The notes under the pieces are model-generated. The model did not search any database and was not told the DNA's origin. It saw only the letters and a program-made list of their open reading frames with translations. From the IMG/VR virus record IMGVR_UViG_2526164631_000023: a stretch of DNA of 64,000 bases. One strand, 5' to 3'. Shown one piece after another: positions 1,129 to 27,478 of the stretch. The position numbers and the translations under genes are program-made. Within the stretch, counting starts at the first letter, position 1. Each line of letters starts with the position of its first letter. This DNA is from a virus. Its lineage: Duplodnaviria; Heunggongvirae; Uroviricota; Caudoviricetes.

Positions 1129-1413
1129 TTATTTTGCTTCCTCAGACTCCGCTAACATGAGGATTGCATGCCGAATCAAGTTCAATTTGCTGCGGTTCAG
1201 TTTTTTGCTTAAATCATCGAGTACGCCGTACTCATATTCATTAAAGCTCACGCGTATGGATTTAAAGTCACGCGGCGCATCTTTATCTGGAGTTTGAGTT
1301 GCAGCCTCAACGCCCGGCACCAAATCGGCTTTAATGGCGAACTCTTCAATGCGGCGCTCTAGTTCAGGGTCTTTTACAGCTTGTGCATTCACTGGCTCAC
1401 GGCGCTTAATCAC
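1129..1413 (-). CDS. Small partition protein, ParG-like ribbon-helix-helix centromere-binding partner of ParA
   Basis: 94 aa, immediately downstream of and overlapping (4 bp) the ParA gene; C-terminal KSIRVSFNEYEYGVLDDLSKKLNRSKLNLIRHAILMLA resembles RHH fold. Confidence 0.55.
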   Translation of the reverse strand: MIKRREPVNAQAVKDPELERRIEEFAIKADLVPGVEAATQTPDKDAPRDFKSIRVSFNEYEYGVLDDLSKKLNRSKLNLIRHAILMLAESEEAK

Positions 1414-2676: not shown

Positions 2677-2682
2677 ACCTCG

Positions 2683-3663: not shown

Positions 3664-3825
3664 ATTTGAGAATCAAAATGCAATTTTAAAAGAGAAGCAC
3701 CCAAAAATCCACACCAAAAGAGATAAAAAAGAGTGATTATTGAGTTCATTTTGAGAATATCTTAATCACCCAATGAATGATGGTCTGACAGTGAGATTTA
3801 TTTGAGAATGAATTGAGAATACAAA
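3664..3825. repeat. parC-like centromere: iterated TTGAGAAT repeats upstream of parM
   Basis: TTGAGAAT at 3666, 3751, 3802 and 3813 plus a degenerate copy near 3740, in AT-rich DNA immediately upstream of parM. Confidence 0.45.
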
Positions 3826-5018: not shown

Positions 5019-5522
5019 ATGCGAATTGGTACATGTTTAACACCAAAAATGAACCTGGAGAGGATGGTTTTGAAAAAGATAATTTTGATTGTAATTGCGC
5101 TTTTAGCCATTTCTGGAATTTACCGAACAACGACGGCAGTTATCGAACACATCAGGTATGTCCGATCGCTTGAAGACTCAAAATCACAACTGGAAAGCAC
5201 GAACAACACGCTTTCTACCGCATTACAGTTAAGTGAGAACGCTCGCTCAGCCATGCTGACCGAAAACGAAAGAATTAAAGCACTGGAAAAGGAGTACCAG
5301 CGCAAAACAGCAGAACTGAATGCCAACCTAATCAAACAACGAGAGGAAAGCCAGAATGAAATCACTCGCCTTGAAAATGCGTTGCGCCGTGCTGGGATTA
5401 ACGATGTGCGTGTGCCTGATGACGTTATCAGGATGCAGCGGGAACGGGCAAAAGCCATCAACCAGCGTGCCAGTGAAAATTACCGTAGAAGCCACCAGCA
5501 AGCCGCAGGCAAATCTGATTGA
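5019..5522 (+). CDS. i-spanin (Rz-like): N-terminal membrane anchor plus periplasmic coiled coil
   Basis: Hydrophobic KKIILIVIALLAISGIY followed by charged heptad-rich region; true start may be an internal ATG (5049 or 5064). Confidence 0.5.
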   Translation: MRIGTCLTPKMNLERMVLKKIILIVIALLAISGIYRTTTAVIEHIRYVRSLEDSKSQLESTNNTLSTALQLSENARSAMLTENERIKALEKEYQRKTAELNANLIKQREESQNEITRLENALRRAGINDVRVPDDVIRMQRERAKAINQRASENYRRSHQQAAGKSD

Positions 5523-5688
5523 TTACTCCCCTTGTTTAGTGCCAGAAGACACGCCAGTGCTGTTAAACAAGTATCCGACATACGCTGAACAGTTATTCAG
5601 CACGATCGACGAATGCAACCAACGAAACGCACTGAATAACCAAAGAAACAGGGAGATTTGGGAAGGGAAGGGGGATCAAGGCTCCTGA
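5356..5688 (+). CDS. o-spanin (Rz1-like) outer-membrane lipoprotein, out of frame within and beyond the i-spanin 3' end
   Basis: Signal peptide with lipobox LMTLSGC; SD gaggaaag 8 nt upstream of ATG; overlaps 5356-5522 of the i-spanin gene in another frame. Confidence 0.5.
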   Translation: MKSLALKMRCAVLGLTMCVCLMTLSGCSGNGQKPSTSVPVKITVEATSKPQANLIDYSPCLVPEDTPVLLNKYPTYAEQLFSTIDECNQRNALNNQRNREIWEGKGDQGS

Positions 5689-6134
5689 AGCCAGATGTCC
5701 TGGCTGTCAGCTTCTTCGAAACCGTGACAGACGTTAAAGTCACTCAAACGATACTGACGCTGACGGCCCCTATTTCGCTCATGCCAATGCATATATCCAC
5801 CAGCAAATGCCAGCGGACAATCGCTATAGTCTATGTAACCAATACCATTCCCCAAACGTGCTTCGCGCGCACCAGCTTTCCAGGACAGTAGAAAAGAGTC
5901 ACGATCCGCCAGCATAACAACAAAATCGTCCGGATCTCCGATACAGTGAAGAATACCTGCCTTACATAACTGCTTGAGCGCTTTTGACTGGCTCAGGATG
6001 TCTTCTCCGTAATACTGAAAACAATCATCAACAACAGCGGGATAGCCTGTCGGGGGATTCAGGCTGGTTGGTATAGCTGACGCGATCGCCAGCATTAAGC
6101 GATATTGTGTTTTTGATGGGTTGACGTGACTCAT
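5676..6134 (-). CDS. Hypothetical protein (152 aa, Cys/His-rich)
   Basis: ORF only; second gene of a leftward two-gene unit downstream of operator-like site at 6557. Confidence 0.3.
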   Translation of the reverse strand: MSHVNPSKTQYRLMLAIASAIPTSLNPPTGYPAVVDDCFQYYGEDILSQSKALKQLCKAGILHCIGDPDDFVVMLADRDSFLLSWKAGAREARLGNGIGYIDYSDCPLAFAGGYMHWHERNRGRQRQYRLSDFNVCHGFEEADSQDIWLQEP

Positions 6135-6150
6135 TTTGTCCCTTGTTTAC

Positions 6151-6543
6151 TCATTGTCGCCATGCATTTTTTAACTCAGGAATATCTGCCATTTCAATTA
6201 ACTTGCGAAGTCCAGCACTGACTTTCCCATTGCCAACCATAGCAAGCCAATCTCTTACAGCTTTCGGCATGTAGAGCGTTGCAGTTACCGGCTCTTCAAC
6301 CCTGGCAGGACATCCGCATACAGGCCATTTAATTGATTCCATAACTTCGGATGCCGGGGTGAGGGCGGGGACATTGAGTATATCTCTACCAGAAAACTGG
6401 ATAACGATCCGTTCAGCGAGCGAGAGTATCTCACTTTCGGCAAGAATTGATGCCAACTGCGCCTCAACAAGAAAGCGACTTGTTGTGTTCAGAGAGTGGC
6501 TCTTAGCGCCATTTTTATACGAAACAAAGATTCGATACGCCAT
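6151..6543 (-). CDS. Hypothetical protein (130 aa)
   Basis: ORF only; first gene of the leftward unit; operator-like motif just upstream of its start. Confidence 0.3.
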   Translation of the reverse strand: MAYRIFVSYKNGAKSHSLNTTSRFLVEAQLASILAESEILSLAERIVIQFSGRDILNVPALTPASEVMESIKWPVCGCPARVEEPVTATLYMPKAVRDWLAMVGNGKVSAGLRKLIEMADIPELKNAWRQ

Positions 6544-6556
6544 AACTCTAATGATT

Positions 6557-6575
6557 TGTGTTAGAAAACTAAAAT
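6557..6575 (+). promoter_or_regulatory. Operator-like motif copy a (TGTGTTAGAAAACTAAAAT)
   Basis: Member of a dispersed family of asymmetric ~19-bp sites, consensus tGTGTTAGAAA(a/t)(c/t)TAA(a/t)T. Confidence 0.45.
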
Positions 6576-6701
6576 TAAATCACATAACAACATGAGTGTT
6601 AATATATTTTATTTTACTAAACCTATTGACTAAATCACAAAGTAGGTATTGTTAGCCCGTCAAAAGAACCTTCACGCCGCGCCCGAATTTAGGGCTTAAC
6701 C

Positions 6702-8399
6702 GTGAATAAAAACATTCAGCCAGCTCGTGATCGCGAGCGCGAGATTATGAATCGGGCGGCAAGCGTCATGGCTATGACCGTCGATCCGACCACCGATGCA
6801 GCAGGCAACATGATTGCTGACCAGGCAGTAATGATGGAAAACCTGGATAAAGCAATCCAGAAAGTGCCTATGTTTGAAGGCGTAAATCCAGAGGTCGCTC
6901 GTCAGATCACTGGTGGGTGGGCTATGTCTCTGCATGAGTATAAACGTCAACATGGTCATTACCCGGCAAGTGACATCCTGGCGAACGCACACATGGCTCT
7001 TGAGCGCCTGATGACTGAATGTGCCAGTGATACCCATGAAGGCACGGGTAAGGCAATGTTTGAGTCTGTCGCGCAATCAATGCGTAGCTCTGACGGCGTA
7101 ATGAAAGTTGCTCAATATGCTGCTCTAATTCTGCCTGCCTCTCTGGGCGCTGCTACCAGTGATGCCTGTACTTTTGTTCCTTGTGATCGTGACGAGTCAA
7201 ATATTTATGAACTGGTCAACGTAGCAGGCACAAAATTCGGCACCTTCAACCAAGGTGACGAACTGAATATGCAGTCAGCTGGTGTTTATTCTCAAATGAA
7301 GCGCCTGTATGCCCTTTCCACTAAAGGGGATGGCAGCACCAAAACCTTCCAGTTCAACATCCAAAATTTTGAGGGACAATCCTGCCCGCTTCGCGCTGGT
7401 TATAACAAACTGCTGATCAACCGCAAACCGTCCAAAGTTGACGACGGCGATGGCAACCTTTATTTCAATGCTAAAGACAGCAAAGGTAATGCTTTCTCAG
7501 CGACTGCCAAAGTTGCCTATGACACTGGTGTCATTGACATTACATTTACCCAGGCTCCGCCAGAAGGTACTGAAATTGCTGTTCAGGTCGAAATTAACAT
7601 CGAGCGCAATCCAAGCCTGATTCCGGTGATCAACCAGGCTATGCGTAAGTACGAAGTTCGTCCGTCCCAGTACGTACTTGCTTCCGAACACACGGTAATG
7701 TCCGCATCCGATTTAAGCCGTGAGCACGGCCTTGAATTAGCGGCACTTCAGTTCTCCGCGATGCGCAACTGGATCTCCCATGAAACCGACATCATGCGTC
7801 TGCGCACCCTGGTATTCCATACCGTTTATGGTCGTGAATTTGATGTGGCTCTGCCGGAAGCTCAAAACTATGAGTCCTGGGTCGGTCTCCTGCGTCACGT
7901 AGTAAACGCTCTGTCTCAAGAAATGGCAAATCGTACCCTGACAACGGGTATTCGTGGCGGCTTTGCTGGTAGTGACGCCGCGAACTTCCTGCGCTCTCTG
8001 CCTCCACAGCACTTCCAGATCGCACCAGGTTACGTTCAGTCGCCGTATGTACAGTACATCGGCACCCTGTTTGGCACGATTCGTATTTACGAAGTGCCGC
8101 AACCTGTCTGTGAGCAATTCCAGGCACAGGGATATGACTTCGGGCTGGATGACATCTTCTTCTATGGGCGTGGCGAAGGCATCGGTAAAGCCGGTCTGAT
8201 TGCTGGTGATGCAGTCCCAGCAATCCCTTACGTTCACGAAACCAATCCGTCTCTCGTTAACCGTACCACTCTCTGGGGCAGTGCCATCAACGAAGTACAT
8301 CCTCGCAACGGTGAAAACTACTTCACCCGCCTGCGTCTGACTCGTGCCAAAGAAGGTGCTATCGACATGCTGACAGGCAAGGTTAACGAAAAAAAGTGA
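6702..8399 (+). CDS. Virion structural protein, candidate major head protein (565 aa)
   Basis: Large ORF opening the structural block; size close to the P1 major head protein as remembered; assignment by size and context only. Confidence 0.35.
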   Translation: MNKNIQPARDREREIMNRAASVMAMTVDPTTDAAGNMIADQAVMMENLDKAIQKVPMFEGVNPEVARQITGGWAMSLHEYKRQHGHYPASDILANAHMALERLMTECASDTHEGTGKAMFESVAQSMRSSDGVMKVAQYAALILPASLGAATSDACTFVPCDRDESNIYELVNVAGTKFGTFNQGDELNMQSAGVYSQMKRLYALSTKGDGSTKTFQFNIQNFEGQSCPLRAGYNKLLINRKPSKVDDGDGNLYFNAKDSKGNAFSATAKVAYDTGVIDITFTQAPPEGTEIAVQVEINIERNPSLIPVINQAMRKYEVRPSQYVLASEHTVMSASDLSREHGLELAALQFSAMRNWISHETDIMRLRTLVFHTVYGREFDVALPEAQNYESWVGLLRHVVNALSQEMANRTLTTGIRGGFAGSDAANFLRSLPPQHFQIAPGYVQSPYVQYIGTLFGTIRIYEVPQPVCEQFQAQGYDFGLDDIFFYGRGEGIGKAGLIAGDAVPAIPYVHETNPSLVNRTTLWGSAINEVHPRNGENYFTRLRLTRAKEGAIDMLTGKVNEKK

Positions 8400-8544
8400 T
8401 GGTGGCGAACGTGTCGGTATCACCAACGTCACTTGACGTAGATGAAGGTGAAACTATCGCCGCGAACACTTCAAAGGCACAGAAAAAACAAAGCAGAAGT
8501 AAGGCAAAAACACGCCCCTGATTAAGGGGCGTTCAGGAGAAAAA

Positions 8545-8823
8545 ATGGCAAACATTCAAGTAACTATCACGCCATCTGACGCAACAGACAAATCTTTCAC
8601 TGTTGAGTCAGATCACCCTGATATTGTCCGGGTTGATGGCACTACATGTACCGCTCTTAAGGTCGGGCAGGCAGTGCTGACAATCAAAACAAATGACGGC
8701 AATAAAACCGCACAGTGCACAGTCACTGTTAGGGAGGCACATAAAAGCGTAAGCACCGTCAGTGTTGAACCAACTACGAAAGAAGTTACCGTAGGCGATA
8801 ACTTCACGGTAAGCCAATCCTGA
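8545..8823 (+). CDS. Bacterial Ig-like (Big_2-type) domain protein, probable virion decoration
   Basis: 92 aa with beta-rich ITPSDAT..FTV..DIVRVDGTT.TALKVGQAVLTIKT..GNKTAQCTVTV pattern typical of phage Ig-like domains. Confidence 0.5.
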   Translation: MANIQVTITPSDATDKSFTVESDHPDIVRVDGTTCTALKVGQAVLTIKTNDGNKTAQCTVTVREAHKSVSTVSVEPTTKEVTVGDNFTVSQS

Positions 8824-8890
8824 TCAGAGGCTGCCCATTAACCGTGGGTAGCCTTGCCTCGTTCTCTCGCTTTAGAGGATAAGAACCAGC

Positions 8891-10549
8891 ATGAATAAGA
8901 TTAGTTTTTCGGTAGGGCAGGCAGCTGGCGTTGCTGTAATGTCAGTAAATGCTGACGCTACCCTCACCAATACCAGCGGTGGCGCATCCGTCTTTGCTGG
9001 GCTTGTAATATCGCGTCGTGGCGCACCGGGTAAGGTACTGAAAGTTGACGATACGACTTATCAAAGCGTATTAGGTTCACCGATTCACCCTCGCCAGGGC
9101 GCGGCATTTGAACCATATCGCCACGTGGAGCGTGCAGTAAAAGGCGGCTCTGGATATGTCGTTCGAGTTTGCGCTAAAGACATGAAGGTGCCGGGTATTT
9201 CTGTTTCCGTTGTGGGCAAAGCAAAAGCGGCAAAGGCGAGCAAAGAACTTTCCGTTGAACCTACTGAAACCACAGTAAATCCAGGTGACACATTAAGCGT
9301 TGGTGTTGCTTCAACTGCAACGACTCAATCAGTGACCTTCACACCCAAAGAGACGCCCCAGATTAAAGGTGGAGAGAAGGCATTATTCTTCATCAAAGAT
9401 GGTGATGCATCTCAAAATCGCACGTTATCACTAACTCGCGATGATGAAGAAAGCGAACTCTTTACGCTGACGCTGAAAGAAAAACAAACCGATGGGTCCA
9501 TTGAGGTGCTGGAAAGCCACCAAGTGTCTTTCAATCCAGAAGGCACCAACGACATGGGCCAACCAGCATGGATTCCGACACTGCTTGAAAGCCAGTCCTC
9601 TCGCATTGGTGCCGTACTGGCAGATAATGCAGAAGCATCCGCTGCTCAACTCATTTTTGAGGATGTAGCTTTTGAAGGTGGTACTGATGGAAATCTGTCC
9701 GAAATTAACGCTGCAGACTATCTGGAAGCATTAAAGGTTCTCGAAGCTTCAGAGGTTAATTACACCGCATTGCTGTCATTGGGTTGTTATGACGCATCCG
9801 CCTTAGCCGCAATCAAAAAGCTGGCTGAAGATGTTCGCGTAGACATGTTCTATGACCTGAAGGGCAACCAGACACCTGAAAACGCTATTTCAGAAGCGAA
9901 AAGCCATAGTTTTGGCGGCTCACATCAACCAAGCCGTTACTACTTCCCGCTCTCCTGCCGAGATACCTTCACTGGGATGAATGTCGTCTATGGCATTAGT
10001 TGCGACGCATTCGTAGCAAAAGCAAAAGGGGTAGCGCTGGTACCGGATGTTGGTGGTTGGCATTACGCACCGGCAGGTATATCACGCGCGATTATTGATC
10101 GACAGAACATTGCCCGAATTCCAAATATCGGTGCAGTTGATCGTGAAGCGTTCGTTCTTGCGCGCATTAATCCGGTTTCAGTTGCTGCTGATGGGTCCGT
10201 TTACATTGACGACTCTTTAACAACTTACAGCAAAAACAACTATCTGCGATTCCAGCATGTGTCTTCCTTGATGAACGCCATCGCCAGAGATTTCTATGAA
10301 GTAGCTCAGGCGATTAAGCACGAACCGGATGGCATTACCAAAGAAACGCTAATGAAAGCAATGACTGAATTGCTTGACCGTTACGTTGCAGCCGGTGCGC
10401 TGGTTACTCCACGTGACAAGTCCCAGGGTGAAGATCCATACGTTGTTCAGGTTGTCCAAAAGGACATCGATCTGTGGGAAGTGTCCTGGTCTGTTTGTCC
10501 GACCGGTACAGCTCGCCGAATCGTCGGTAAGCCAATTCTGATGCGCTGA
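8891..10549 (+). CDS. Candidate tail sheath protein (552 aa)
   Basis: Size and position beside candidate tube gene; C-terminal ARINPVSV..SVYIDDS segment sheath-like; unverified. Confidence 0.35.
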   Translation: MNKISFSVGQAAGVAVMSVNADATLTNTSGGASVFAGLVISRRGAPGKVLKVDDTTYQSVLGSPIHPRQGAAFEPYRHVERAVKGGSGYVVRVCAKDMKVPGISVSVVGKAKAAKASKELSVEPTETTVNPGDTLSVGVASTATTQSVTFTPKETPQIKGGEKALFFIKDGDASQNRTLSLTRDDEESELFTLTLKEKQTDGSIEVLESHQVSFNPEGTNDMGQPAWIPTLLESQSSRIGAVLADNAEASAAQLIFEDVAFEGGTDGNLSEINAADYLEALKVLEASEVNYTALLSLGCYDASALAAIKKLAEDVRVDMFYDLKGNQTPENAISEAKSHSFGGSHQPSRYYFPLSCRDTFTGMNVVYGISCDAFVAKAKGVALVPDVGGWHYAPAGISRAIIDRQNIARIPNIGAVDREAFVLARINPVSVAADGSVYIDDSLTTYSKNNYLRFQHVSSLMNAIARDFYEVAQAIKHEPDGITKETLMKAMTELLDRYVAAGALVTPRDKSQGEDPYVVQVVQKDIDLWEVSWSVCPTGTARRIVGKPILMR

Positions 10550-10592
10550 TTTATAACCCCCGCTAAATGATGCGGGGGAGAGAGGTTTGAAT

Positions 10593-11327
10593 ATGAAAAA
10601 TTATACTGCTGATCCTTTTATGCGTGCGATTTTCGGTTCTGGCTGCTTTGAAAGCGGTGATAAATCCACGCAGGACAATAATGATAACGCCATGCTGGAA
10701 AGCGCAGGACAGAAAGGAAAGGACACTCAACCAAAGCCCAAAGACGACATTGAAACCGCGATGATGGAAGCGGTTGAATCCCGTGCACAAGGTGATATGC
10801 GCAGCCTGGCAGCTTCCATGCTTGCTGGTTGGGTTGAAGATGGTGATCCGGAGGCTGACTCATTTGATGCATTAGCAATCACTATGGCTGGCCTGGCTGA
10901 TATCGATGAAGACACCGATTTCACCGATGAGCAAATCGATGCTTATAATGATGCACTCGCAGCTCTTGCTGATGCAGCTGTTGCGCTTGGCGCTGATCAG
11001 GATGATGTAACCGAAATGATCGACGATGAAGATGACTCAGCTGCCGAACGTGTTTATGACGCTCTTTCCGAAAGCGACACCGACATGATGGAAACAGCTA
11101 TTGCCATTTACACCGTTGCTGGTGGTGATAGCGCAATGCTGGAAGCGGTACGTAAAAAAGTGGTTCGTGATGGCAAGGTAACCATCATCCGTAAACGCCC
11201 GCGTCCTCGCCGCATGACGTCATTGCAAAAACAGGCGCTGAAAAAAGCACGCCGCAAAGCACATACATCCGTAGCGAATATCAACCGCAAAAAATCAATG
11301 CGCATTCGCAAAAAACGCGGTTTGTAA
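10593..11327 (+). CDS. Strongly acidic protein with a basic C-terminal tail
   Basis: ATG at 10593 with SD ggagagagg; Asp/Glu-rich body and C-terminal RKRPRPRR..KKARRK..RKKSMRIRKKRGL; hairpin cccccgc/gcggggg just upstream. Confidence 0.35.
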   Translation: MKNYTADPFMRAIFGSGCFESGDKSTQDNNDNAMLESAGQKGKDTQPKPKDDIETAMMEAVESRAQGDMRSLAASMLAGWVEDGDPEADSFDALAITMAGLADIDEDTDFTDEQIDAYNDALAALADAAVALGADQDDVTEMIDDEDDSAAERVYDALSESDTDMMETAIAIYTVAGGDSAMLEAVRKKVVRDGKVTIIRKRPRPRRMTSLQKQALKKARRKAHTSVANINRKKSMRIRKKRGL

Positions 11328-11376
11328 GTGACATAGGCCGTCTGCAAAGGTGGCCTCTACCTGGGAGAAATAGCGT

Positions 11377-11967
11377 TTGATTTGCGGCGCGATAATGCCT
11401 GACGGAATAAGTCCGTTAATGAAGGTTTATATCCTCTCTTCAGAGGATATGGTCGTCGGTTATATCGGTGAAGGATCTACCGCAGAACTGTCATCAATGT
11501 GGCAATCACCATTTGAAAACCAGTCAGTAGGAGGTTTGCTTGGTGGTATTAGCGCTGCGGCTGGCTCTCTTGCAGATACGCTTCAGACCGCAACCGGCGT
11601 AACAACAAAAACCCTCTTCAACTCAATGCTTGTTTGGGAAGGTCAGCAACCGCCTGAATTTAATCTGGTAATTGATTTCATGGCGACAACGAACGCGCAA
11701 CTTGAAGTGAACGCAGCCATTACAGCATTGCTGAAGATGGAATCGCCGGAACTGAACAATGTAGCGCCATTCGGTCGTCGCCCGGAGACAGTAACGTTAA
11801 ACATAGGTAGGAACATAGCCCTTACCGACGTTGTTATCAAAAGCGTGAGTTACCAACTGGACGCCCCACGCACACCGGAAGGCTATTTCACTCATAACAC
11901 GGTAACCCTGCAATGCAGCGGAAACACCTCGATTAACCGTAGCAACATATCATCTGTTTTTGTGTAG
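11377..11967 (+). CDS. Hypothetical structural-module protein (start uncertain)
   Basis: ORF in structural block; several possible starts. Confidence 0.3.
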   Translation: MICGAIMPDGISPLMKVYILSSEDMVVGYIGEGSTAELSSMWQSPFENQSVGGLLGGISAAAGSLADTLQTATGVTTKTLFNSMLVWEGQQPPEFNLVIDFMATTNAQLEVNAAITALLKMESPELNNVAPFGRRPETVTLNIGRNIALTDVVIKSVSYQLDAPRTPEGYFTHNTVTLQCSGNTSINRSNISSVFV

Positions 11968-11975
11968 GAGTATTT

Positions 11976-12467
11976 ATGTCCGGTTTTGCAAATACAAAAG
12001 CCGATATCGCTTTTCTGAAATCCCGGTTGAACAAAAACCTGGCAGCGGGCGAAAAACTTATTGGTTCAGAATTCTGGATGACTATTAAAGGTTACGAAAA
12101 ACTATCTGTACTTGTTCGTACCACTCAGTTGCCGGAAATGACTCGCGAAGACGTGGAAGACTATGGTCCTGGCGGCATGAAGATCAACCAGCACGGGCCA
12201 TTGCGTAACTCAGGTGAATTCCAGGTTACCTGCTCTGAAACCATCGAAGGGGATGTTCTGGCCGCCGTAAAACAAATGGTATATGGCAAAGAATATCTGG
12301 AAATTACCTTACAGGCAGCGGCTGAATCCAATAGCGGTAACCATAAAGGTCTGATCCGCACATATTATCACTGCAAAGTGTATTCCGACGCAGTGGACTT
12401 CTCCACCGAAGACGTAACAGCAGTCGTTAAGCCTTCCCTGCGTATTGTTTACAACTGGGTAGAGTGA
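11976..12467 (+). CDS. Candidate tail tube protein (163 aa)
   Basis: Size and position after candidate sheath; SD aggag upstream of ATG. Confidence 0.35.
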   Translation: MSGFANTKADIAFLKSRLNKNLAAGEKLIGSEFWMTIKGYEKLSVLVRTTQLPEMTREDVEDYGPGGMKINQHGPLRNSGEFQVTCSETIEGDVLAAVKQMVYGKEYLEITLQAAAESNSGNHKGLIRTYYHCKVYSDAVDFSTEDVTAVVKPSLRIVYNWVE

Positions 12468-12519
12468 TCTCTTTCCCGCCCTTGTGGCGGGAACTCCTTG
12501 TATTTGAGTTGTAGGTACG

Positions 12520-13071
12520 ATGACACCAACCGAATTATTAGAAAGCGTTAAAGCACGATTTAATCCACTGCTTGTGCGTGAAGAAGAAACGCTGAAAGCC
12601 TTCCTGATCAAAGCTCTGACCACGTATCAGGACAGGGCAGGGGTAGTGAAAACGTTAAAACTTGAAAAAGCTGGTGGTACTGCAATCCCATTACCAGAAG
12701 ATTATCTCTCTCTGGTTCATGTTACCGACAACAATGGCCTGTTGGTCTATTCGGATGAATTATCCGGATTTATTGAATTAGAGCTAACAGGTTCAGAGCG
12801 CTGGCCTTTTCGAATGCTGTATCTGGTTAATCTACACGACAGAAAGCTGGATGAATGGCAAGTGCCTCCTGCAATCATTGGAATGCTGGAGGAATATCTA
12901 GAGGCGCTTATCAATGTAAGAAATGTCGCCCGGCAGCGTAGAGCGTCCATCGACGGGAAATTTGACTACTCCGATCTGCCCGATGAAGCCACGCTATATG
13001 CCCGCGTGCAGGAGATTGAGGAAAAAATGTCCTCAAACCGGGCCATTATTCCGGGGGCTACCATTTTTTAA
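12520..13071 (+). CDS. Hypothetical protein (183 aa)
   Basis: ORF only. Confidence 0.3.
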   Translation: MTPTELLESVKARFNPLLVREEETLKAFLIKALTTYQDRAGVVKTLKLEKAGGTAIPLPEDYLSLVHVTDNNGLLVYSDELSGFIELELTGSERWPFRMLYLVNLHDRKLDEWQVPPAIIGMLEEYLEALINVRNVARQRRASIDGKFDYSDLPDEATLYARVQEIEEKMSSNRAIIPGATIF

Positions 13072-13086
13072 CGCTGGAGGCGCAGA

Positions 13087-13794
13087 GTGAGTATTTTCAG
13101 CAGCGTTGGTAGAACGTTGACCACCGCATTGTCATTTAACACGAAATCATTCACCAGCAACCTCATTAGCGACATTCTTGATAAAGCCATATCAGGCGGC
13201 GGGGTAAGCGGGAATTACAGTAGCGATATTGCCTACGGGAAAAATATTGTTGCTGCCGCTATGCGTATCCGTTACGCCCAGGGGTGGCAGTGGACCGTTG
13301 AAGTGGATGGCCTGAACGGCTTCGATATGTTCGTGAAGGATATCACCTACAGCAGTGGAAACATTGAGACAGAAAGCAAGGTGATCGGCAGCGTAGAATT
13401 CAGCAAGCCAACCTATGTTAGCGCCGGACCGGTCACTATGACCGTGAGGGATACCGAAGATGGCAAGATCATGGACTGGTTCAAAGAGCGTCGTTCTCGT
13501 GTAACAAATCCTGATGGAACAATAAACCTTCCTCCGGAATATCTGATGAAAATCCGTGTCTACCGGGTAACTCAGGACGGCGGAAAAGAACTGGAAGAAG
13601 AAATGCGCGTATTTCCTACACAACTTGGGGAAATCACTCGCTCACGTGATCAGGTGTCAGAGTTCTTGTCATACCCAATCACTTTCCAGAAATACACATC
13701 TGCAGGCTCAGGTGTTTCTGCTTTGGTCAACGGTGCCGCTGGCATGGCTACAAGTGCGTTAAAGGGGGCTATCAGTGGAGTGATCAAATTCTGA
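13087..13794 (+). CDS. Hypothetical protein (235 aa)
   Basis: GTG start with SD ggagg; ORF only. Confidence 0.3.
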   Translation: MSIFSSVGRTLTTALSFNTKSFTSNLISDILDKAISGGGVSGNYSSDIAYGKNIVAAAMRIRYAQGWQWTVEVDGLNGFDMFVKDITYSSGNIETESKVIGSVEFSKPTYVSAGPVTMTVRDTEDGKIMDWFKERRSRVTNPDGTINLPPEYLMKIRVYRVTQDGGKELEEEMRVFPTQLGEITRSRDQVSEFLSYPITFQKYTSAGSGVSALVNGAAGMATSALKGAISGVIKF

Positions 13795-13805
13795 AATGCT
13801 TTAAT

Positions 13806-14028
13806 TATGTGTGCTGTAGGGAAAGGTTTACGTTAAATGTGTGCTGCCGGGAAACCCCATTGCTCAAGATGTGTTGTAGAGGGAATGGTAATGGCAACAT
13901 GTGTGCTGGAGGGGAATTTCGCATGTAAAGAGCGTCATTTATCCCTCCAGCACACATCTGAAATAAGCAATCCTCTGAAATTCCCTCCACCACACATCCA
14001 GACATGAAACTATCCCTTCAGCACACAT
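13806..14028. repeat. incA-like iteron array downstream of repA: ~7 RepA iterons in both orientations
   Basis: ATGTGTGCTG(t/c/g)(a/c)GGGAA copies at 13807, 13836, 13869, 13899 and reverse copies CAGCACACAT at 13948, 13989, 14020. Confidence 0.8.
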
Positions 14029-14892
14029 TTAATCTGTTGGTTTAAGTTTCGGATTCCGAGAGTGAACGATAATGAAGTTTTCACGACCTTGCTTTTCAAT
14101 GGTGCAATCGAGATAACCTATTGTTTTTAACTGGTCTATAGCTTTTTTTATCGTTCTGTTTTGCTCACTTACCGATGACATCAAGGCTAATCTTTCACGT
14201 ATTCTGGCAAATGAAATAGGTATTGGACGTGCCGGGAGGCTTTCTATAAAGGTATATATGGCCTGGGCTGCTTCTTTTTTAGGTAAAGCGCGAAGTGCGT
14301 GTTGCTGTAGAAGCACCCGATAGTCTAGCTGGAAGATTTCCCATAACTTGGAATCAGCCTCCAGTTCAACGACATCTGTTTCAAAGTCAAAATATCCCGT
14401 TTTAAGCAGGCCAGTATTGTAGCTTCCACGAGCACTTTTCCCTCTTTTGAATGAGATGCCTTTGTTGCGTAACCGACCTAAAGAATCGTGGATCGTGTTT
14501 CTTAATTTCCCATCAAGTCGCTTAGATGGAAATCCGCACGCCTTTGCAAATTCTTGAAAAGAAAGGCGAATTGTATTCGATGATAAGCCATACTTGCTAA
14601 ATGAGTAGATTACCCCAATCCAGACTTTGAAATCAGTATCCATGTCCAAGCGAGGGCCAGTGATCTTGATGTTGTCGTAGCCTTCTGCTTGAGCTATTTC
14701 CAATTTGGAAAAAACAGATGATGCATCTATCTCGTTGTTTTCACCCTGTTTTTTAGTTGGTTTAGGGACGAAAACACCAAGCCGCATAAGTGCGACAGGT
14801 TGAACAGTATTGTTCGAATTAACTGTTAATTCTTTAGCCTTGCTTTCAATGTCAGCATAAAGAATATCAGAGATAAATGACTTATCCATCAA
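14029..14892 (-). CDS. repA: Plasmid replication initiator RepA (P1 R-replicon type)
   Basis: 287 aa beginning MMDKSFISDILYADIESKAKELTVNSNNTVQPVALMRLGVFVP, closely matching P1 RepA as remembered; flanked by cognate iterons. Confidence 0.85.
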   Translation of the reverse strand: MMDKSFISDILYADIESKAKELTVNSNNTVQPVALMRLGVFVPKPTKKQGENNEIDASSVFSKLEIAQAEGYDNIKITGPRLDMDTDFKVWIGVIYSFSKYGLSSNTIRLSFQEFAKACGFPSKRLDGKLRNTIHDSLGRLRNKGISFKRGKSARGSYNTGLLKTGYFDFETDVVELEADSKLWEIFQLDYRVLLQQHALRALPKKEAAQAIYTFIESLPARPIPISFARIRERLALMSSVSEQNRTIKKAIDQLKTIGYLDCTIEKQGRENFIIVHSRNPKLKPTD

Positions 14893-14949
14893 TAAGTTAC
14901 CGTCATGTTGTGAATAAAGTTTACGACAGTGGATATCCGGCTTTTTTTC

Positions 14950-15050
14950 CCATCAGCACACATCCTACATCCCGCCAGCACACATGTAAAACCCTCCAGC
15001 ACACATATTTTTCCCGTCAGCACACATCGTTCTCCCTCCAGCACACATCT
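14950..15050. repeat. incC-like iterons: five direct CAGCACACAT-containing repeats at ~21-bp spacing upstream of repA
   Basis: Copies at about 14954, 14976, 14997, 15019 and 15039. Confidence 0.8.
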
Positions 15051-15089
15051 GAATAGTGGTTAAAGCCTTATGTGGCGCGGCCTGAAGAG

Positions 15090-15160
15090 CTACGGGATCT
15101 ATTTGGTACTATATGGATCTAATCAGGATCTATATATTGGATCTATCCTGTGGATAAAAA
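15090..15160. promoter_or_regulatory. oriR core: GATC repeats and a DnaA box
   Basis: gggATCTatttggtactatatgGATCTaatcagGATCTatatattgGATCTatcc then TGTGGATAA (reverse complement TTATCCACA) at 15149-15157. Confidence 0.65.
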
Positions 15161-15243
15161 AGAAGAATTACAAAGCTCCACCCAATTTCACACACTACCT
15201 ATCCTCCAACGAATAAACAGACATCTGCTTATCGGAGGAATAC

Positions 15244-16065
15244 TTGAACATTCCAAAATTCCCATTGCCTTCCCGTCCTGAGACAGAAATTCAGTTCCAC
15301 GCCCCTACCGTGAAGGATGCGCTGAAATATTCTGACCTGAACCCGGCAGAAGATGAGGCAACTACTACAGAGTACCTTAACTCTATGCAGGATGGTGAAA
15401 TTAACGACAGTGCTTACTGGACAGTCCAAGATCGCAGAACTGCCCTTTGGTGGATATTTGTTAATTCGCGCCCCGATGCAGTAATGACCTACTCCTATGA
15501 GTGCAGTCACTGCGGTAATACGCATCATGCAGATATTAACCTGAGCGACCTGGCCCAAACAGTAGAAATACTCACTGTACCTCCTTACGTGAAAACCAAC
15601 GTACCAGTAAATGGAGTACCAACTGACTGGATACTTAAACCATTAACCGGGAAAGGTGTGGAACTCCTTGAACGAATGCGAGCGTCACTTCCTGATATGA
15701 AAAGTCCCGAATACAGTGCTGGCGTAGCACGGATGCGAATTGCTGAACTCGCTTTATGCACGGCGCTTGAAGACGATCCGGAGGACTTCACGCAGGCCGC
15801 TAACCGACGCTTTGACATCATTGAAAGCATGGCGCTTGAAACCGAATTTACTCCGCTTGTGGCTCGCATACAGCTTATGCAAAAAGACCTACGCCACGGC
15901 CTGAAAATGTCTATTGAGAGAGGCTCAAGCCGACTGATCCTGCCTCCGCAACATTGCAAAAACGCTAAGGAGGGTGCAGATGTGACAACCACACTGTACG
16001 TCCCCTTTCTCAATAGAGAGTTTATCCCATCAATTAGATCTGAATGGATGGCTAACCATTATTAA
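15244..16065 (+). CDS. Hypothetical protein with Cys/His cluster (CSHCGNTHH)
   Basis: TTG start 6 nt after strong SD ggagg; 273 aa. Confidence 0.35.
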   Translation: MNIPKFPLPSRPETEIQFHAPTVKDALKYSDLNPAEDEATTTEYLNSMQDGEINDSAYWTVQDRRTALWWIFVNSRPDAVMTYSYECSHCGNTHHADINLSDLAQTVEILTVPPYVKTNVPVNGVPTDWILKPLTGKGVELLERMRASLPDMKSPEYSAGVARMRIAELALCTALEDDPEDFTQAANRRFDIIESMALETEFTPLVARIQLMQKDLRHGLKMSIERGSSRLILPPQHCKNAKEGADVTTTLYVPFLNREFIPSIRSEWMANHY

Positions 16066-16079: not shown

Positions 16080-19000
16080 ATGGATATCAGCCCGTTAGTG
16101 ACGTTGAACAATTGCCACAATGGCGAGCACTCCATATGTCAAAAGCCCTGGAAGAAAAATACAAAGCTCAAGCCGGGAAACGTTGTCGCCGCTGGTAAAA
16201 GAGAGGTTATTTTGAAAGAGAATAAAGACCGTATCGCAATAATTGACGCTATTCAGGGGGCGAGCACAAACGAACTTAAGGCTCTTGCTGAGATCAAAGA
16301 CGCCATTCTCTCTGGTAGAGGGTCTATAACTCAACTTGGTGAAAATCAAGGTAAAGTAAGTCAAAGACTATCCCGTAGACTCATAGCAAGCGAACCCTAT
16401 GTCTCTGGTGATGCCAAGAATACCCAACCTAACCCATATATAAAACGCCTTCCGATGAAAAAAGGGAGGAAGCAGGTCAACAACGGAGAAGAACGTCTCA
16501 TTGTTGCAACCAACACATCAGAGCGCGTTCATTTTGCGTCATCACTCCAGTCCGCCCAAAAGTTGAAAGGTTCTGTGCCAGTAGCCGCTAATTCTGCTCC
16601 TCTTGAACCACAATCCCCCCAAAGCCAAAAAGGACCGCTTCGGGATAGTAATGGACGCTTTGTATCCCAGAAAAACAACGAAGATATAGCCAGAAAAAAA
16701 GAATGGCAGAACGCACGTAAGGCCGACGCCAAACTACAAGAAGGCTTCCTCCGGAAATTAGGCTCCATTATAGGGGTAGATGGCAATCAGTCTTCCAGTG
16801 AAGAGTCTTTAACAGATGCCGCAGGTATCGGCGCTGGTGGTCCGTTGTGGATAGCTGCTCGCGGCATGTACGACATTACTAAAGAGATCACAGGTAAAGC
16901 AGAATCTCTTAAAGAATGGATAGAAAAGGGGAAAGGTGAGGCTTCATCTTCGAAAGCGACATCACCAGCTATCACTTATCCGGCGGTGGTGAATACTCAA
17001 AAAGCAACCTCTGCAACAGCATTTAATAATGCTGTTGAGACAAAATCAGCACAAGCAGTAGAAGAGCAAACAAAAATTCTTCAGACCAATGACAACAAAA
17101 TAATTGATGGTCTGGAAAATGTCTCCGACGAAGTAGTTAAGCTACGCAAATCAGTATCTTCTGGAAATAAGTTCGGCTTAAGTGATCTCTGGAGAAATCG
17201 AGCAAGCAGAAGAAATAAAATCAATATTGGCGATCAGGCTGGTAAAAATAAACGGAACAAACCGAAAAGGAAAGGTCGCAATCTGGGGAAAAAAGCCCTT
17301 TCTGTTGGTGAAAAAGCCGCTGCCGGAAGCGCTGCTGCTGGAGCTGGTGCCGGAGCTGCAAAGACTGTTAAAACAAAGGTTAGTAAAGCCAAAGACATCA
17401 GCACCACAAGCGACGCATCTAAGGGTATTGCTAAAGAAACAAAAAACACAGCAAAGGCAGTTAAGCCAGCAGGTGTTGTTGCCGAAGAGGCCACAATTAA
17501 AACAGGTGAAACTGTTGCAAAGAAAAAAACCGAATCCGTAGCCCTCAAAAGTGCTGCAAAAATAGGTGTTAAATCAGCGGCTTCTACAGCTGCAAGAGCT
17601 ATCCCGATCATCGGATCGCTGGCTATGGCGGGATATGACGCTATAGATGGTTACACTGATACAGATGCGCAAAAGGCAGCCTTTGGATTAAGTGACGATG
17701 ATGCTGTATCCGAACAGCAAAAAACGGCTTACGCAACAGCTAATGTGCTCGATATGGGGGGCTTGGTGTCGGGCACAACGAACTTGATAGGGAAAGGAAT
17801 TTCTGCGCTAGGATTTGAAAGAGCAGGTGAAAAACTTCAGAATTTTGATACCGGAGATATTGCTCGTGGTGTTAACGGCGCGGTAGATATCAACAAATCT
17901 GTTTTTGGTAGCCTTAAGGATACATTTTTATCCACTGACGAAAACACGAAACAAGTAAAAAAAGCTGTTGAAGACGGCACCAAAAAAACTGTCGATGCGA
18001 TTCATTCTCTTGGTGAACAATTACAAGGTGGGCGTAATGGCGAGGATGGAGTTGGTGAGCACGGGTATACTTCTCCAACTGAATTTAGTGCACCTGCCAA
18101 CAACACCATTGCAGCGGATCTGAATATTGGCGGCAGCAACGCTAAAAACCGCAATTACCGAAATAATAATCTCGGCAATCTTGTTTTTGCCAACCAGGAA
18201 GGGGCGACGCTGGAATCGCCAAATGTAAAAGGTGAACAACGTTTTGCGCGATTTAACACACCTGAAGAAGGGATCAGGGCACTGGCAAACCAGGTTTCCA
18301 GCTATTACAACGGCACCAGTGCCGCAGCGGGATATCAGAAGTTACAGACGGTATCCAGCATCATTTCAAAATGGGCACCGCCAAATGAGAACAATACTAA
18401 CCAATATATTGATAACGTCAGTAAATATCTTGGTGTATCGCCTAATGAAAAAATAGATGTCAGCAAACCAGAGGTTATGACGCAATTAGTTCGTGCAATT
18501 GCGACGAAAGAAGGCGGAAATCCGGCAGTTAATAATGAGTTCATTAAGAACGCACTTGGAGCATTTAACACAAACACTGGTCGATGGGAGGGACAATTCT
18601 CTGACGAAACATTGGCGCGGATTAATAAAATTCAGAAAGAAAATGGTGGTCAGCTAATTGCCCGCGATTCGCAATATAGTGTTGGTCGCAAGGTAAAATA
18701 TGCTAATGGAAAATCTCCAGCTCAACCAGTTTTGAATGCCGTTCCGACAGCAACACAACAGCCAATTGAGGTTGCACAACATGCCCAGGCAGTCAAAAAG
18801 CCACAAAAAACAGGTAACCAACCACAACCGATTAATCCAGAGAACGCTGATGTTAATACCGGCTCTCCATCGAGTTTGCTTGAGCGGTTAATCGCAATAA
18901 ATGAAAGCGGAATCAGTGGTGCAAGTAATTTATTTGGCGGCGCGGCTACCAGCCTTGCTGGAACAAGTCTGGACCTGGTAAAGGATTTTGCGTTAGCTAC

Positions 19001-19949
19001 TTCGTTTGGTTCTATATCTTCGCTTTCCGAAAAAGCGAAAGGAATGGATCAGGCTCTTACTGAAAAGATATCCGGCTTAACCGGTAAATCTTTTGGATTT
19101 AAAAAAGCTTCTCAAGTGGCTGATATCGCAACAGCCATACAACAAAAACGCGCTGTTAATCGTGATACAGAAATCATTGATCTACTTCCGGGAGATCAAG
19201 TATCCCCTTCTACTCCGAAAACTCCACAGCAGGAGCAGGCTCTAGCAATCAGCCAGGCTATAGAGGGAGCTGCGCCAGTAGTTGCCTCTGGAAAACGAAC
19301 TATCACGGCACCAAGTGATGTGCAGATTTATGACAACGGCTACAAGGTGGTTACAGGTGAGGATAAGAGCTTCTTTGGTTCGCTATTTGATTCCACGGTG
19401 TCAGGGATTAAACAGACAGGAACCGCAGCAATTCCTGCCGTTGGCGATAACCTTTCACGACTTGTTGGGGGGATTGATAGTACAGGGATATTGAACGATC
19501 TTGTAATGCAGTCTACTGGGCAGAATAGTGCGATTGCGCGAGCTATTAGCCCATTAACAAGAAATGTTGGAGACTGGCTGAATGGGGGGATTCAACAAAC
19601 CGCTAATAGCATTAGGGGAATAGCAACTGGTGCCAATAACGCCATATTTGGCTCTGCTTCAGCTGTGCAAGAACCTTTTCTTGCTATGCCGCCACAACTC
19701 CCTACTGTAACCGATCTCGCACGAAGCGGAATAAGACAACCATTAACTACTGACACTATAAATAACGATCCTGCTATGTTGAAGGCGCTGGATAACATCT
19801 GCTCTATCCTGAACGATCTGCTGAATGTGAGCAAGAACAATACAAAAGGCGATCCGGATAATGTTGTCAAAACATCGCAGCCGCAGCCGCGACCACGTGC
19901 GAGCACAACTATTAATGACCAGTCGCTGGATGCTCTGCTTGAGGATTAA
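16080..19949 (+). CDS. Tail tape-measure / virion injection protein (P1 Sit-like), 1289 aa
   Basis: Very long low-complexity Ala/Gly/Lys-rich protein upstream of baseplate and fibre genes; start uncertain. Confidence 0.5.
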   Translation: MDISPLVTLNNCHNGEHSICQKPWKKNTKLKPGNVVAAGKREVILKENKDRIAIIDAIQGASTNELKALAEIKDAILSGRGSITQLGENQGKVSQRLSRRLIASEPYVSGDAKNTQPNPYIKRLPMKKGRKQVNNGEERLIVATNTSERVHFASSLQSAQKLKGSVPVAANSAPLEPQSPQSQKGPLRDSNGRFVSQKNNEDIARKKEWQNARKADAKLQEGFLRKLGSIIGVDGNQSSSEESLTDAAGIGAGGPLWIAARGMYDITKEITGKAESLKEWIEKGKGEASSSKATSPAITYPAVVNTQKATSATAFNNAVETKSAQAVEEQTKILQTNDNKIIDGLENVSDEVVKLRKSVSSGNKFGLSDLWRNRASRRNKINIGDQAGKNKRNKPKRKGRNLGKKALSVGEKAAAGSAAAGAGAGAAKTVKTKVSKAKDISTTSDASKGIAKETKNTAKAVKPAGVVAEEATIKTGETVAKKKTESVALKSAAKIGVKSAASTAARAIPIIGSLAMAGYDAIDGYTDTDAQKAAFGLSDDDAVSEQQKTAYATANVLDMGGLVSGTTNLIGKGISALGFERAGEKLQNFDTGDIARGVNGAVDINKSVFGSLKDTFLSTDENTKQVKKAVEDGTKKTVDAIHSLGEQLQGGRNGEDGVGEHGYTSPTEFSAPANNTIAADLNIGGSNAKNRNYRNNNLGNLVFANQEGATLESPNVKGEQRFARFNTPEEGIRALANQVSSYYNGTSAAAGYQKLQTVSSIISKWAPPNENNTNQYIDNVSKYLGVSPNEKIDVSKPEVMTQLVRAIATKEGGNPAVNNEFIKNALGAFNTNTGRWEGQFSDETLARINKIQKENGGQLIARDSQYSVGRKVKYANGKSPAQPVLNAVPTATQQPIEVAQHAQAVKKPQKTGNQPQPINPENADVNTGSPSSLLERLIAINESGISGASNLFGGAATSLAGTSLDLVKDFALATSFGSISSLSEKAKGMDQALTEKISGLTGKSFGFKKASQVADIATAIQQKRAVNRDTEIIDLLPGDQVSPSTPKTPQQEQALAISQAIEGAAPVVASGKRTITAPSDVQIYDNGYKVVTGEDKSFFGSLFDSTVSGIKQTGTAAIPAVGDNLSRLVGGIDSTGILNDLVMQSTGQNSAIARAISPLTRNVGDWLNGGIQQTANSIRGIATGANNAIFGSASAVQEPFLAMPPQLPTVTDLARSGIRQPLTTDTINNDPAMLKALDNICSILNDLLNVSKNNTKGDPDNVVKTSQPQPRPRASTTINDQSLDALLED

Positions 19950-19954
19950 TACTG

Positions 19955-20329
19955 ATGCTTTACGAAATAGACGCAAGACTTCAAACGAATGAGAGCGGTG
20001 TCATTATTGCAGAAGGAAGTACCGCAGCATGGATGGCCCGACTTGAGGAGTGGCTACGAACCCCTGAAGGGAGTGTTTATGGTTTACCCTCTTGGGGGAG
20101 TCCAATGGAAGAATTTAAGCATGAACCATTCGGCTCTGAAACTTCGCACATAGTTGAAGTGGCTATTGAAGGGAGAATGATGAAAAAACTACGACAAGAC
20201 TTGCCAGGTTTGGATGTGCAGGGGATTCGTTGCACATCAATTTCTGAAGATTCTTTATTAATTAGTTTTTATGCGAAAGGTGGGAGCATGGATATTGTTA
20301 TGCAGAAATCAAGTGGGGTGGGCGCGTGA
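19955..20329 (+). CDS. Small baseplate protein (gpW/gp25-like size)
   Basis: 124 aa, SD gagga; overlaps next gene by 4 bp. Confidence 0.3.
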   Translation: MLYEIDARLQTNESGVIIAEGSTAAWMARLEEWLRTPEGSVYGLPSWGSPMEEFKHEPFGSETSHIVEVAIEGRMMKKLRQDLPGLDVQGIRCTSISEDSLLISFYAKGGSMDIVMQKSSGVGA

Positions 20330-21756
20330 CGATTACAGAATTACTGGACAAATTTAACGCCAAGTTAAATGAAAACACATGGTGGTCACGATTTGTAAAT
20401 AGTCAGTTTGTGCAGATGCACGCTATATTCGGATCGCAGCTTATTTATATTGCCCGTACATTTGCAAGCCGCGGCCTCACTGAGGGACTTATTTCAACGG
20501 CAACGCGTCGCTCAAGTATTTTAGCGGTTGCTGAAGACCGTAGCTACGTAGGGCGATTTGTTAGTGCTTCATACGGAACAACGTCTATAACCAATAAAAC
20601 TGATCGGGATATTACGTTACCAGCCGGGGCTGAATTGCTTGCCAATGACCAAACACCTTTGGCAATTATTAACAGTGTTGTAATTCCTGCTGGAGGAACT
20701 GTTTCTGGCGTAGAAACTAAACAGCATGAAGCTGTTAGCATTACATTTGATATTGAGAAGGAAACTTTATTTCTGACATTGTTGCTTTCCAGAGAGTTAA
20801 CAAAAGAAGTCTCTAGCCTGGATGTTTATGTTATTACAGATGGAGTAGAAGAAAAATGGACATATAACCCATTATTTAGAATGTCCAGAGACAAGAGTAA
20901 GCACTATTCATTGGCATATAAACCTACAGAACAACTTGGAGTCAAGTTTGGTGATGGTTCTATGGGTATGATGCCTCCAGCAGGCTGTCAGGTTCGAATC
21001 GATGTTATGGCTAGCCTTGGCGACTATACTTTGGCTGAAGGACAAAAGTTAGAACCGGCTGGAAATATCGCTCAATATGTGGAGTCACTAGAGTTTAAAA
21101 CTGATTCGATCATTACCGGTGGTAGTGGTATGGAAACTACAGAAGAAACTCGAAATCGTGCTCAGTATTATGTTGCATACGATGAACAAGTGGTATGGGG
21201 CGGTGATTATCGCCAATTCATTCAGAATGTTGTTCATGGAACTTCATGGTTGAACGTTTGGGGCGAAGCGTTGCAAGAGAAAATAACTGGGTTTGACGTT
21301 CGAAACATAAACAAGATTTTCTTTTGCGGACATAAGCCAGGTGTAAGCCAGGCTCAGCTAAAATCAGAAATACTGAAAGCTCTAGAGAATGTTCCAAATG
21401 AGTTGAACAAGCGGTTTGAGTATGTAGATACAAATGAACAACCATTTACTATAAAATTTACAGGTATTGCACGTAAAAATGTTCTGATAGACGACGCTCA
21501 AAATGCTATTAAAGCAGCGTTGGAAGATAATTTTGGTCGTGATTCGTCATCATTCAGTTTATTACTACAGAGTGATGATGATTCTCAGCAATGTTATGCA
21601 CAGGTAAAAGTTAAAGATATTTGGCGAGTAATAGAGTCGCTGGATATGTTTCTCTCTTATGACATAACAATACAAAATATGAAAGATGCAGTTTACTTTA
21701 ATGACTTCATTTATCTTGACGTGAAATCTTCAACGTTCAGCATTTCTTACCCGTAA
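20326..21756 (+). CDS. Candidate baseplate wedge protein (476 aa)
   Basis: Position and size within baseplate operon. Confidence 0.3.
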   Translation: MTITELLDKFNAKLNENTWWSRFVNSQFVQMHAIFGSQLIYIARTFASRGLTEGLISTATRRSSILAVAEDRSYVGRFVSASYGTTSITNKTDRDITLPAGAELLANDQTPLAIINSVVIPAGGTVSGVETKQHEAVSITFDIEKETLFLTLLLSRELTKEVSSLDVYVITDGVEEKWTYNPLFRMSRDKSKHYSLAYKPTEQLGVKFGDGSMGMMPPAGCQVRIDVMASLGDYTLAEGQKLEPAGNIAQYVESLEFKTDSIITGGSGMETTEETRNRAQYYVAYDEQVVWGGDYRQFIQNVVHGTSWLNVWGEALQEKITGFDVRNINKIFFCGHKPGVSQAQLKSEILKALENVPNELNKRFEYVDTNEQPFTIKFTGIARKNVLIDDAQNAIKAALEDNFGRDSSSFSLLLQSDDDSQQCYAQVKVKDIWRVIESLDMFLSYDITIQNMKDAVYFNDFIYLDVKSSTFSISYP

Positions 21757-27475: not shown

Positions 27476-27478
27476 ATT

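Follow-up and report, generated by a model that had tools for sequence, protein, structure and literature searches.

A P1-type RepA/iteron replicon in a D6-like phage-plasmid, lying between tub and pmgB at a site of repeated replicon exchange among related plasmids

In the plasmid replicon of phage P1, replication can proceed without the incA locus, and either of the sets of DnaA boxes is enough. The mechanism by which replicons of this kind work is already known, as is the presence of a replication site between tub and pmgB (D6 annotation; PMC7969092). In P1-g2 elements, the replication and partition genes are found apart from each other (PMC7969092), and D6-like plasmids have been described to carry partition genes of the parM/stbB type (PMC6799933). 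Moreover, P1-like elements have been noted, in broad terms, to exchange replicases (PMC10879196), and the D6 'repB' marker serves to screen for D6-like phage-plasmids (bioRxiv 10.1101/2025.09.12.675607). In the accessible literature, which did not cover the D6 genome paper (PMC5800970), we found no description of a P1-type variant of D6-like plasmids, of relic or nested iteron scars, or of the Enterobacter intermediate presented below.

Within the 64-kb stretch of DNA that was analyzed here (hereafter the window), a segment of 1.45 kb separates the stop codon of tub from a pmgB-like gene, and its sole long open reading frame runs on the minus strand, at 14029-14889. Judged by its sequence, the region 13806-15157 is an intact replicon of the P1 RepA/iteron family, and the coordinates proposed in the initial annotation (13806-15160) were right to within 3 nt. 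The long open reading frame corresponds to repA, which would encode a replication initiator of 286 aa (14029-14889, minus strand, with the ATG at 14889-14887); the product is homologous to P1 RepA, and it matches the Pfam family Rep3_N with 28.6 bits, above the curated cutoff of 22.4. The alignment with P1 RepA, also a protein of 286 aa, is free of gaps and contains 237 identical residues out of 283 (84%). The repA reading frame is full length and shows no frameshift, and its product is 100% identical in eight plasmids of PLSDB and 99.7% identical in a ninth one. In addition, comparison with the homologue from plasmid p60214CZ_1 of Enterobacter gave 92.7% identity between the amino acid sequences versus 74.8% between the nucleotide sequences, and repA therefore appears to be under strong purifying selection. 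Several small open reading frames located in the iteron arrays (13805-14005, 13837-14007, 14877-15056 and 14889-15044) were rejected as by-products of the repeats, as they coincide with iterons that align to non-coding P1 DNA. Neither Rfam matches at the gathering score nor hits of the tRNA scan were obtained within 13800-15200.

Iteron arrays had been proposed to flank repA, and this was confirmed, with five iterons upstream of the gene (incC) and seven downstream of it (incA). When the whole 64-kb window was scanned with the P1 19-mer GATGTGTGCTGGAGGGAAA, allowing up to three mismatches, nine matches were retrieved, all of them within 13806-15049, where 0.01 would be expected by chance and none of 100 shuffles reached nine. 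A scan with the 15-nt core identified 12 iterons at the replicon locus, five in incC and seven in incA, and the 19-bp consensus is letter for letter the same as that of P1 (gATGTGTGCTGGAGGGAaA). The five origin iterons of incC, recognized by the iteron scans and by alignment with P1, share a single orientation on the minus strand (14946-14964, 14968-14986, 14989-15007, 15010-15028 and 15031-15049); they align one-to-one with P1 iterons 10-14, and the spacing of their cores (22, 21, 21 and 21) is exactly that of P1. The incA-type control locus (13806-14029), likewise supported by the iteron scans and by alignment with P1 incA, contains seven 19-bp RepA iterons in two orientations, four on the plus strand (13806-13824, 13836-13854, 13868-13886 and 13898-13916) and three on the minus strand (13940-13958, 13980-13998 and 14011-14029), spaced by 30, 32, 30, 44, 40 and 31. 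These iterons align in order with P1 copies 3-9, P1 copies 1-2 being without counterpart in the window, and the last of them shares 1 nt with the repA stop codon, as is also the case in P1. The number of incA iterons varies in the family, and relatives carry from 8 to approximately 10.

On the outer side of incC, a GC-rich spacer (GTGGCGCGGCCTG, 15072-15084), identical to P1 in the alignment, separates the iterons from the GATC repeats. The latter consist of four GGATCTA heptamers (Dam sites, starting at 15095, 15115, 15126 and 15139) in an A+T-rich, putative origin-opening region at 15095-15145; they are exact copies and align with the Dam-site cluster of P1, in agreement with the four GATC heptamers reported earlier for this origin. 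The GGATCTA motif occurs six times in the whole window, with four copies within 51 bp at the origin, and a density of four GATC per 60 bp is the maximum of the window, reached at the origin only. The DnaA box reported for the origin was also found: a perfect box, TGTGGATAA (TTATCCACA on the minus strand), lies at the outer end of oriR at 15149-15157, aligned with the first of the two tandem boxes of P1. It is the sole perfect DnaA box in the window, with 0.59 expected by chance, and, as one box is no more than chance would provide, its weight comes from its position. Moreover, a DnaA-box-like 9-mer with one mismatch, TGTGAATAA, is located between incC and the repA start (14909-14917, minus strand), and P1 has TGTGGATAG at the aligned position. 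A promoter-like site (TTTACA, 17 nt, TAGGAT; 14962-14990, minus strand) was detected within incC, at the position of P1 PrepA, with a score of 9/12 in the consensus scan, and it is the sole sigma-70-like match in 13600-15400. That same scan detected no promoter between the DnaA box and pmgB, and a search for a late promoter of the P1 type (-22 box plus -10) upstream of pmgB returned no convincing match. The replicon is oriented opposite to the tail genes that it separates, and pmgB and sit are located downstream of it.

The initial annotation considered this locus a complete R replicon of the P1 type. That description is sound in so far as all sequence elements are present, in the order and phasing of P1, but several of them occur in fewer copies than in P1, namely the incA iterons (seven versus nine), the GATC sites (four versus five) and the outer DnaA boxes (one versus two tandem ones). 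These shortfalls all fall where relatives vary too. Any of them could change the behavior of the replicon.

As the initiator and every cis element agree with those of P1 in kind, order and phasing, a P1 mechanism is the one best supported. The five phased iterons (19 bp) of incC would be bound by RepA monomers, and host DnaA would occupy its box at 15149-15157, possibly along with the weaker box at 14909-14917; RepA and DnaA would then jointly open the adjacent A+T-rich segment containing the four Dam-methylated GGATCTA heptamers. The location of the promoter-like site inside incC, at the PrepA position, implies that RepA would repress its own synthesis. Furthermore, the seven incA iterons may act by titration of RepA and by pairing with the iterons of the origin ('handcuffing'), which would keep the copy number near one per chromosome. 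Altogether, this locus very probably serves a D6-like phage-plasmid as its low-copy maintenance replicon, working by a P1-like mechanism and with a history of parAB loss.

Next to the replicon, the structural genes reported to abut it were indeed found. The tail tube gene tub (13087-13794, plus strand) makes up the left flank, with 12 nt between its stop codon and the first incA iteron, and the right flank is occupied by the pmgB-like gene (15244-16065, plus strand), followed by a sit-like gene (16080-19949, plus strand). The partition operon was said to be missing after incA, and we also found neither parA nor parB there, nor any parAB remnant between incA and tub; from the sequence, the P1 rep-par maintenance unit is absent, even though the replicon is of the P1 type. 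The neighborhood had been described as rearranged, but it represents the standard layout of D6-like (P1-g2) elements rather than a rearrangement particular to this one, with the rep gene of D6 at the same tub/pmgB site. Partition genes are present in another part of the window, where parM (2683-3639, minus strand; Pfam StbA_N, 6.8e-69, and ParM_N, 3.3e-55) is found together with a parR/StbB-like gene (2332-2670, minus strand; Pfam Plasmid_stab_B, 3.2e-11), and ATTCTCAA repeats are located upstream of parM. In addition, adjoining these genes, a gene for a small ParA-type ATPase (1410-2042, minus strand; Pfam matches to AAA_31, MipZ, CbiA and ParA) and the open reading frame of its 94-aa partner (1129-1413, minus strand) represent a possible second partition system. 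The presence of ParM/ParR, and of the small ParA, approximately 10 kb away thus explains the 'missing' operon, and partition would be uncoupled from this replicon, with a type II ParM/ParR system in place of parABS.

Regarding the element that carries the replicon, identity to phage D6 amounts to 97.9% over 5706-13821 (8.1 kb), through tub and iteron 1, and to 90-96% beyond 15188; therefore, by its backbone, the window is a D6-like phage-plasmid (P1-g2). It is also 99.97-100% identical to the E. coli plasmid NZ_CP066033.1 (97.4 kb). We rejected the possibility of both being the same sequence, as the window is without the IS100 of that plasmid (34008/34012 joins both sides) and the invertible tail-fibre segment is arranged differently; NZ_CP066033.1 is a near-identical sibling of the window, and IS100 is no feature of the latter. 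MOB-suite types a single replicon on this plasmid, and the PLSDB gene table, which is incomplete, lists for it no further plasmid initiator, only the lytic RepL.

The occurrence of the cassette was counted in PLSDB and in the RefSeq complete E. coli genomes. A P1-type cassette at this site was found in nine PLSDB plasmids, and in seven of the 5,426 complete E. coli genomes, where it resided in every case on a circular plasmid of 93-97.5 kb and never on the chromosome. The Salmonella record NZ_CP044179.1 (35 kb) was considered as a natural mini-replicon and rejected, as it is a linear record extending from parR to the portal gene and looks like a partial assembly, which says nothing in favor of autonomous replication. 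The best match to the replicon in the phage collection, Cronobacter phage JK004 (73.8%), was set aside as uninformative for the D6-like site; its layout and gene sizes look P1-like (capsid, parB, parA, repA), and all its genes are annotated as 'hypothetical'.

To put the replicon in the context of its site, 124 PLSDB plasmids with tub/pmgB flanks were sorted by cassette. The D6-type cassette, with a 251-aa Rep_3 initiator and unrelated iterons, accounts for 103 records, the P1-type cassette of the window, with its 286-aa RepA and P1 iterons, for nine, and a third type (rep_cluster_2164), with a 294-aa RepA and again unrelated iterons, for two. In D6 and other D6-type plasmids, the tub stop codon is followed, after 12 nt, by a P1-type iteron, by a second and degenerate iteron, and only then by their own Rep_3 replicon; the relic pair of D6 reads ATGTGTGCTGGAGGGTTGCTCATTTCCCGTCAGCACCCAC. 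The first relic iteron was within the alignment in all 20 of the flank-only records listed, of 116 matching. Scars of different types are also found together: plasmid pNCYU-26-73-5 carries nested P1-type and D6-type scars, in this order, followed by an active third replicon, and in NZ_CP085065.1 the third-type replicon is preceded by D6-type iterons and by the 3' end of a D6-type rep gene. In Enterobacter plasmid p60214CZ_1, the order is sit-pmgB-[oriR-repA-incA-parA-parB]-tub, with parM/parR present as well, and nucleotide identity to the window is about alike for repA (74.8%), tub (71.5%) and pmgB (73.6%).

The relic P1-type iterons of D6-type plasmids, together with the full module found alongside parMR in Enterobacter, suggest that parAB was lost as redundant and that a P1-type replicon was the first to occupy this site. 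In the simplest scenario, an ancestor of the D6-like elements would have had parMR and, between pmgB and tub, the complete P1-type module oriR-repA-incA-parA-parB; deletion would next have removed parAB-parS, which was redundant, along with the two distal iterons of incA; and, in most descendants (most of the E. coli and Salmonella members), the repA/iteron core would later have been replaced by other replicons. The replicon of the window is itself an ordinary one, and related plasmids have repeatedly exchanged their replicons at this site.

The main rival to an ancestral P1-type replicon is re-import by recombination at the relic iteron, according to which the cassette was recently reacquired in an exchange between a D6-type phage-plasmid and an IncY-like plasmid or P1-like phage-plasmid. 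Homology would have been provided by the relic iteron near tub and, on the other side, by conserved sequence preceding pmgB, and function would again follow a P1-like mechanism. Homology to D6 stops precisely where iteron 1 ends (13821) and is found again from 15188 on, between flanks that are 96-98% identical, as such an event would leave it, but the truncated incA/tub junction is common to D6-type plasmids, so that the junction predates the swaps. Similarly, the P1-type carriers are 99.4-100% identical across the cassette, suggesting recent spread, and the closest match to RepA (94.8% at the amino acid level) belongs to a Salmonella element with the P1-like order repA-parA-parB, versus 92.7% for Enterobacter; however, neither PLSDB nor the phage collection yielded a donor above approximately 76-77% nucleotide identity. 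Re-import would also be favored by the exchange of replicases that PMC10879196 describes, in general terms, for P1-like elements; against it, the interval between incA and tub contains no remnant of parA, whereas in every close relative examined repA is followed by parAB. Taking both sides into account, we regard re-import as somewhat unlikely.

Beyond parAB loss followed by replicon replacement, one may also conceive the tub-pmgB gap as a dedicated hotspot for replicon exchange, in which iteron arrays and the shared GATC/DnaA module are themselves the substrates of recombination, every exchange leaving behind a nested scar; the relic iterons kept near tub in more than 100 D6-type plasmids may then bind RepA of the IncY type, acting as a small incA-like determinant against P1-type replicons. 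This is a speculative proposal, and we consider it rather doubtful. Far less credible is that the replicon is a decaying, non-functional relic, with maintenance ensured by another origin, e.g., through low-level use of the lytic RepL/oriL: the shortened incA, the single DnaA box and the single GATC site fewer than in P1, the true relic iterons at the same site in other plasmids and the repL homologue present in the element would fit it, but repA is full length and under strong purifying selection, all five origin iterons are in exact phasing, the promoter-like site, the GC spacer and the heptamers are intact, the annotation of the 97-kb plasmid NZ_CP066033.1 lists no further plasmid Rep, and P1 itself tolerates loss of incA and has redundant DnaA boxes.

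Some practical consequences can be anticipated for elements of this kind. A nucleotide identity to P1 of approximately 71% is presumably too low for standard IncY typing tools to call the replicon, and the Rep_3 initiator of the D6 type, used as 'repB' marker, is absent from the window; therefore, elements with the P1-type cassette may be mis-typed or left untyped. Moreover, since the iteron consensus is that of P1, incompatibility with P1/IncY replicons is expected, which would apply to P1/IncY plasmids and to P1-derived vectors. The locus, its relatives and the neighboring scars can be read as a record of serial replicon replacement, and they would document how a redundant partition operon came to be lost from a lineage of phage-plasmids, both in keeping with the view, already published, that replicase exchange allows phage-plasmids to evade incompatibility. 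Nothing here alters the known workings of such replicons.

In comparison with named systems, the replicon agrees at the sequence level with the P1 RepA/iteron family, and the backbone with D6-like phage-plasmids. With the R replicon of P1/P7 (IncY), the locus shares the order and orientation of all elements (oriR-incC-repA-incA), the iteron consensus, the spacing of incC, an incA in two orientations, the GC spacer, the GATC heptamers and the outer DnaA box, despite the limited nucleotide identity and the fewer repeats mentioned above. The P1 replicon is located between upfA and gene 23, next to parAB, whereas that of the window lies inside a tail-gene operon, between tub and pmgB; these two genes are 14 bp apart in P1, in one late operon, and are separated in the window by the replicon. 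Phage D6 shares the backbone and has a putative plasmid rep gene, orf42, between tub and pmgB in the same orientation, as well as parM/parR at a distance, but D6 and the 103 PLSDB plasmids of its type differ in having the 251-aa Rep_3 initiator and iterons of the TGAGGGCAAATCTTACACC type, and comparison of orf42 with the RepA of the window revealed no significant similarity. The third cassette (MOB-suite rep_cluster_2164; pNCYU-26-73-5 and NZ_CP085065.1) resembles that of the window in site and overall architecture, and its outer origin (GC spacer, GATC repeats and TGTGGATAA) is approximately 89% identical to window positions 15073-15300, but its 294-aa RepA is 42% identical to that of the window and its iterons (ATCGCACATAGTCAACATTAA) are unrelated. 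It is approximately 76% identical at the nucleotide level to the replicon of about 396 other plasmids, mostly from E. coli (listed sizes of 88-133 kb), and we suspect that it corresponds to the p0111 type of P1-like phage-plasmids. Finally, plasmid p60214CZ_1 (NZ_CP085744.1) from Enterobacter hormaechei carries oriR-repA-incA of the P1 type, also between tub and pmgB, with the 92.7% identical RepA, the same style of right-hand junction, and parM/parR, there adjoining dmt; it differs in having kept P1-type parA and parB after incA and in having approximately 10 incA iterons, on a backbone with approximately 70-74% nucleotide identity to the window.

Immediately 3' of the stop codon of the tail-tube gene tub, D6-type plasmids carry two relic P1-type iterons, ATGTGTGCTGGAGGG ... 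TTTCCCGTCAGCACCCAC, which precede the plasmids' own unrelated Rep_3 replicon. The relics were located at 8106-8150 in phage D6, at 3700-3760 in the compared element L009 and at 2345-2400 in L010, whose arrangement matches pNCYU-26-73-5. L010 also holds D6-type relic iterons, which precede a third, active replicon, and its scars are therefore nested.

The divergent D6-like element of Enterobacter hormaechei plasmid p60214CZ_1 contains two partition systems (5469-6817 and 16946-20476): parM/parR adjoining dmt, and P1-type parA/parB, which lies between tub and pmgB and is joined there to a repA of the P1 type. This element looks like an intermediate state preceding the loss of parAB. In the window, two candidate partition systems are adjacent on the minus strand, namely a small ATPase of the ParA type accompanied by a 94-aa open reading frame that matches nothing in Pfam (1129-2042), and ParM/ParR (2332-3639). 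At the start of the window, a glutaminyl-tRNA synthetase gene on the minus strand (3-860, running off the window start; Pfam tRNA-synt_1c, 6.9e-113) encodes 286 aa from the N-terminus of the enzyme, and its counterpart in the near-identical E. coli plasmid NZ_CP066033.1 carries the annotation of a full-length glnS; an aminoacyl-tRNA synthetase represents unusual cargo for a phage-plasmid.

Alignment with this reference plasmid broke the tail-fibre region (24359-30561) into inverted and permuted pieces, and a small serine recombinase gene adjoins it, which fits a putative invertible host-range segment of the Cin type that has the opposite or another orientation in the window. Moreover, a head-protein gene of NZ_CP066033.1 is interrupted by IS100 (istA/istB) at the point matching window positions 34008-34012, where the flanking aligned blocks overlap by 5 bp; the window lacks IS100, and thus its copy of this gene appears intact. 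On the plus strand, Rfam matches to a C4 antisense RNA and its a1/b1 target element (71.9 and 52.2 bits, respectively) at 40477-40683 indicate a predicted P1-type immI immunity region, and five tRNA genes are clustered at 53799-55093 (Arg-tct, Tyr-gta, Thr-tgt, Ser-tga and Met-cat).

The replicon splits genes that form a single late operon in P1, yet the interval from the origin to the pmgB-like gene (15158-15243) yielded no promoter-like site. A ATCACACAC...CCTATCCTC...GGAGGAAT block upstream of pmgB is conserved regardless of the cassette present, and may represent a pmgB leader or promoter.
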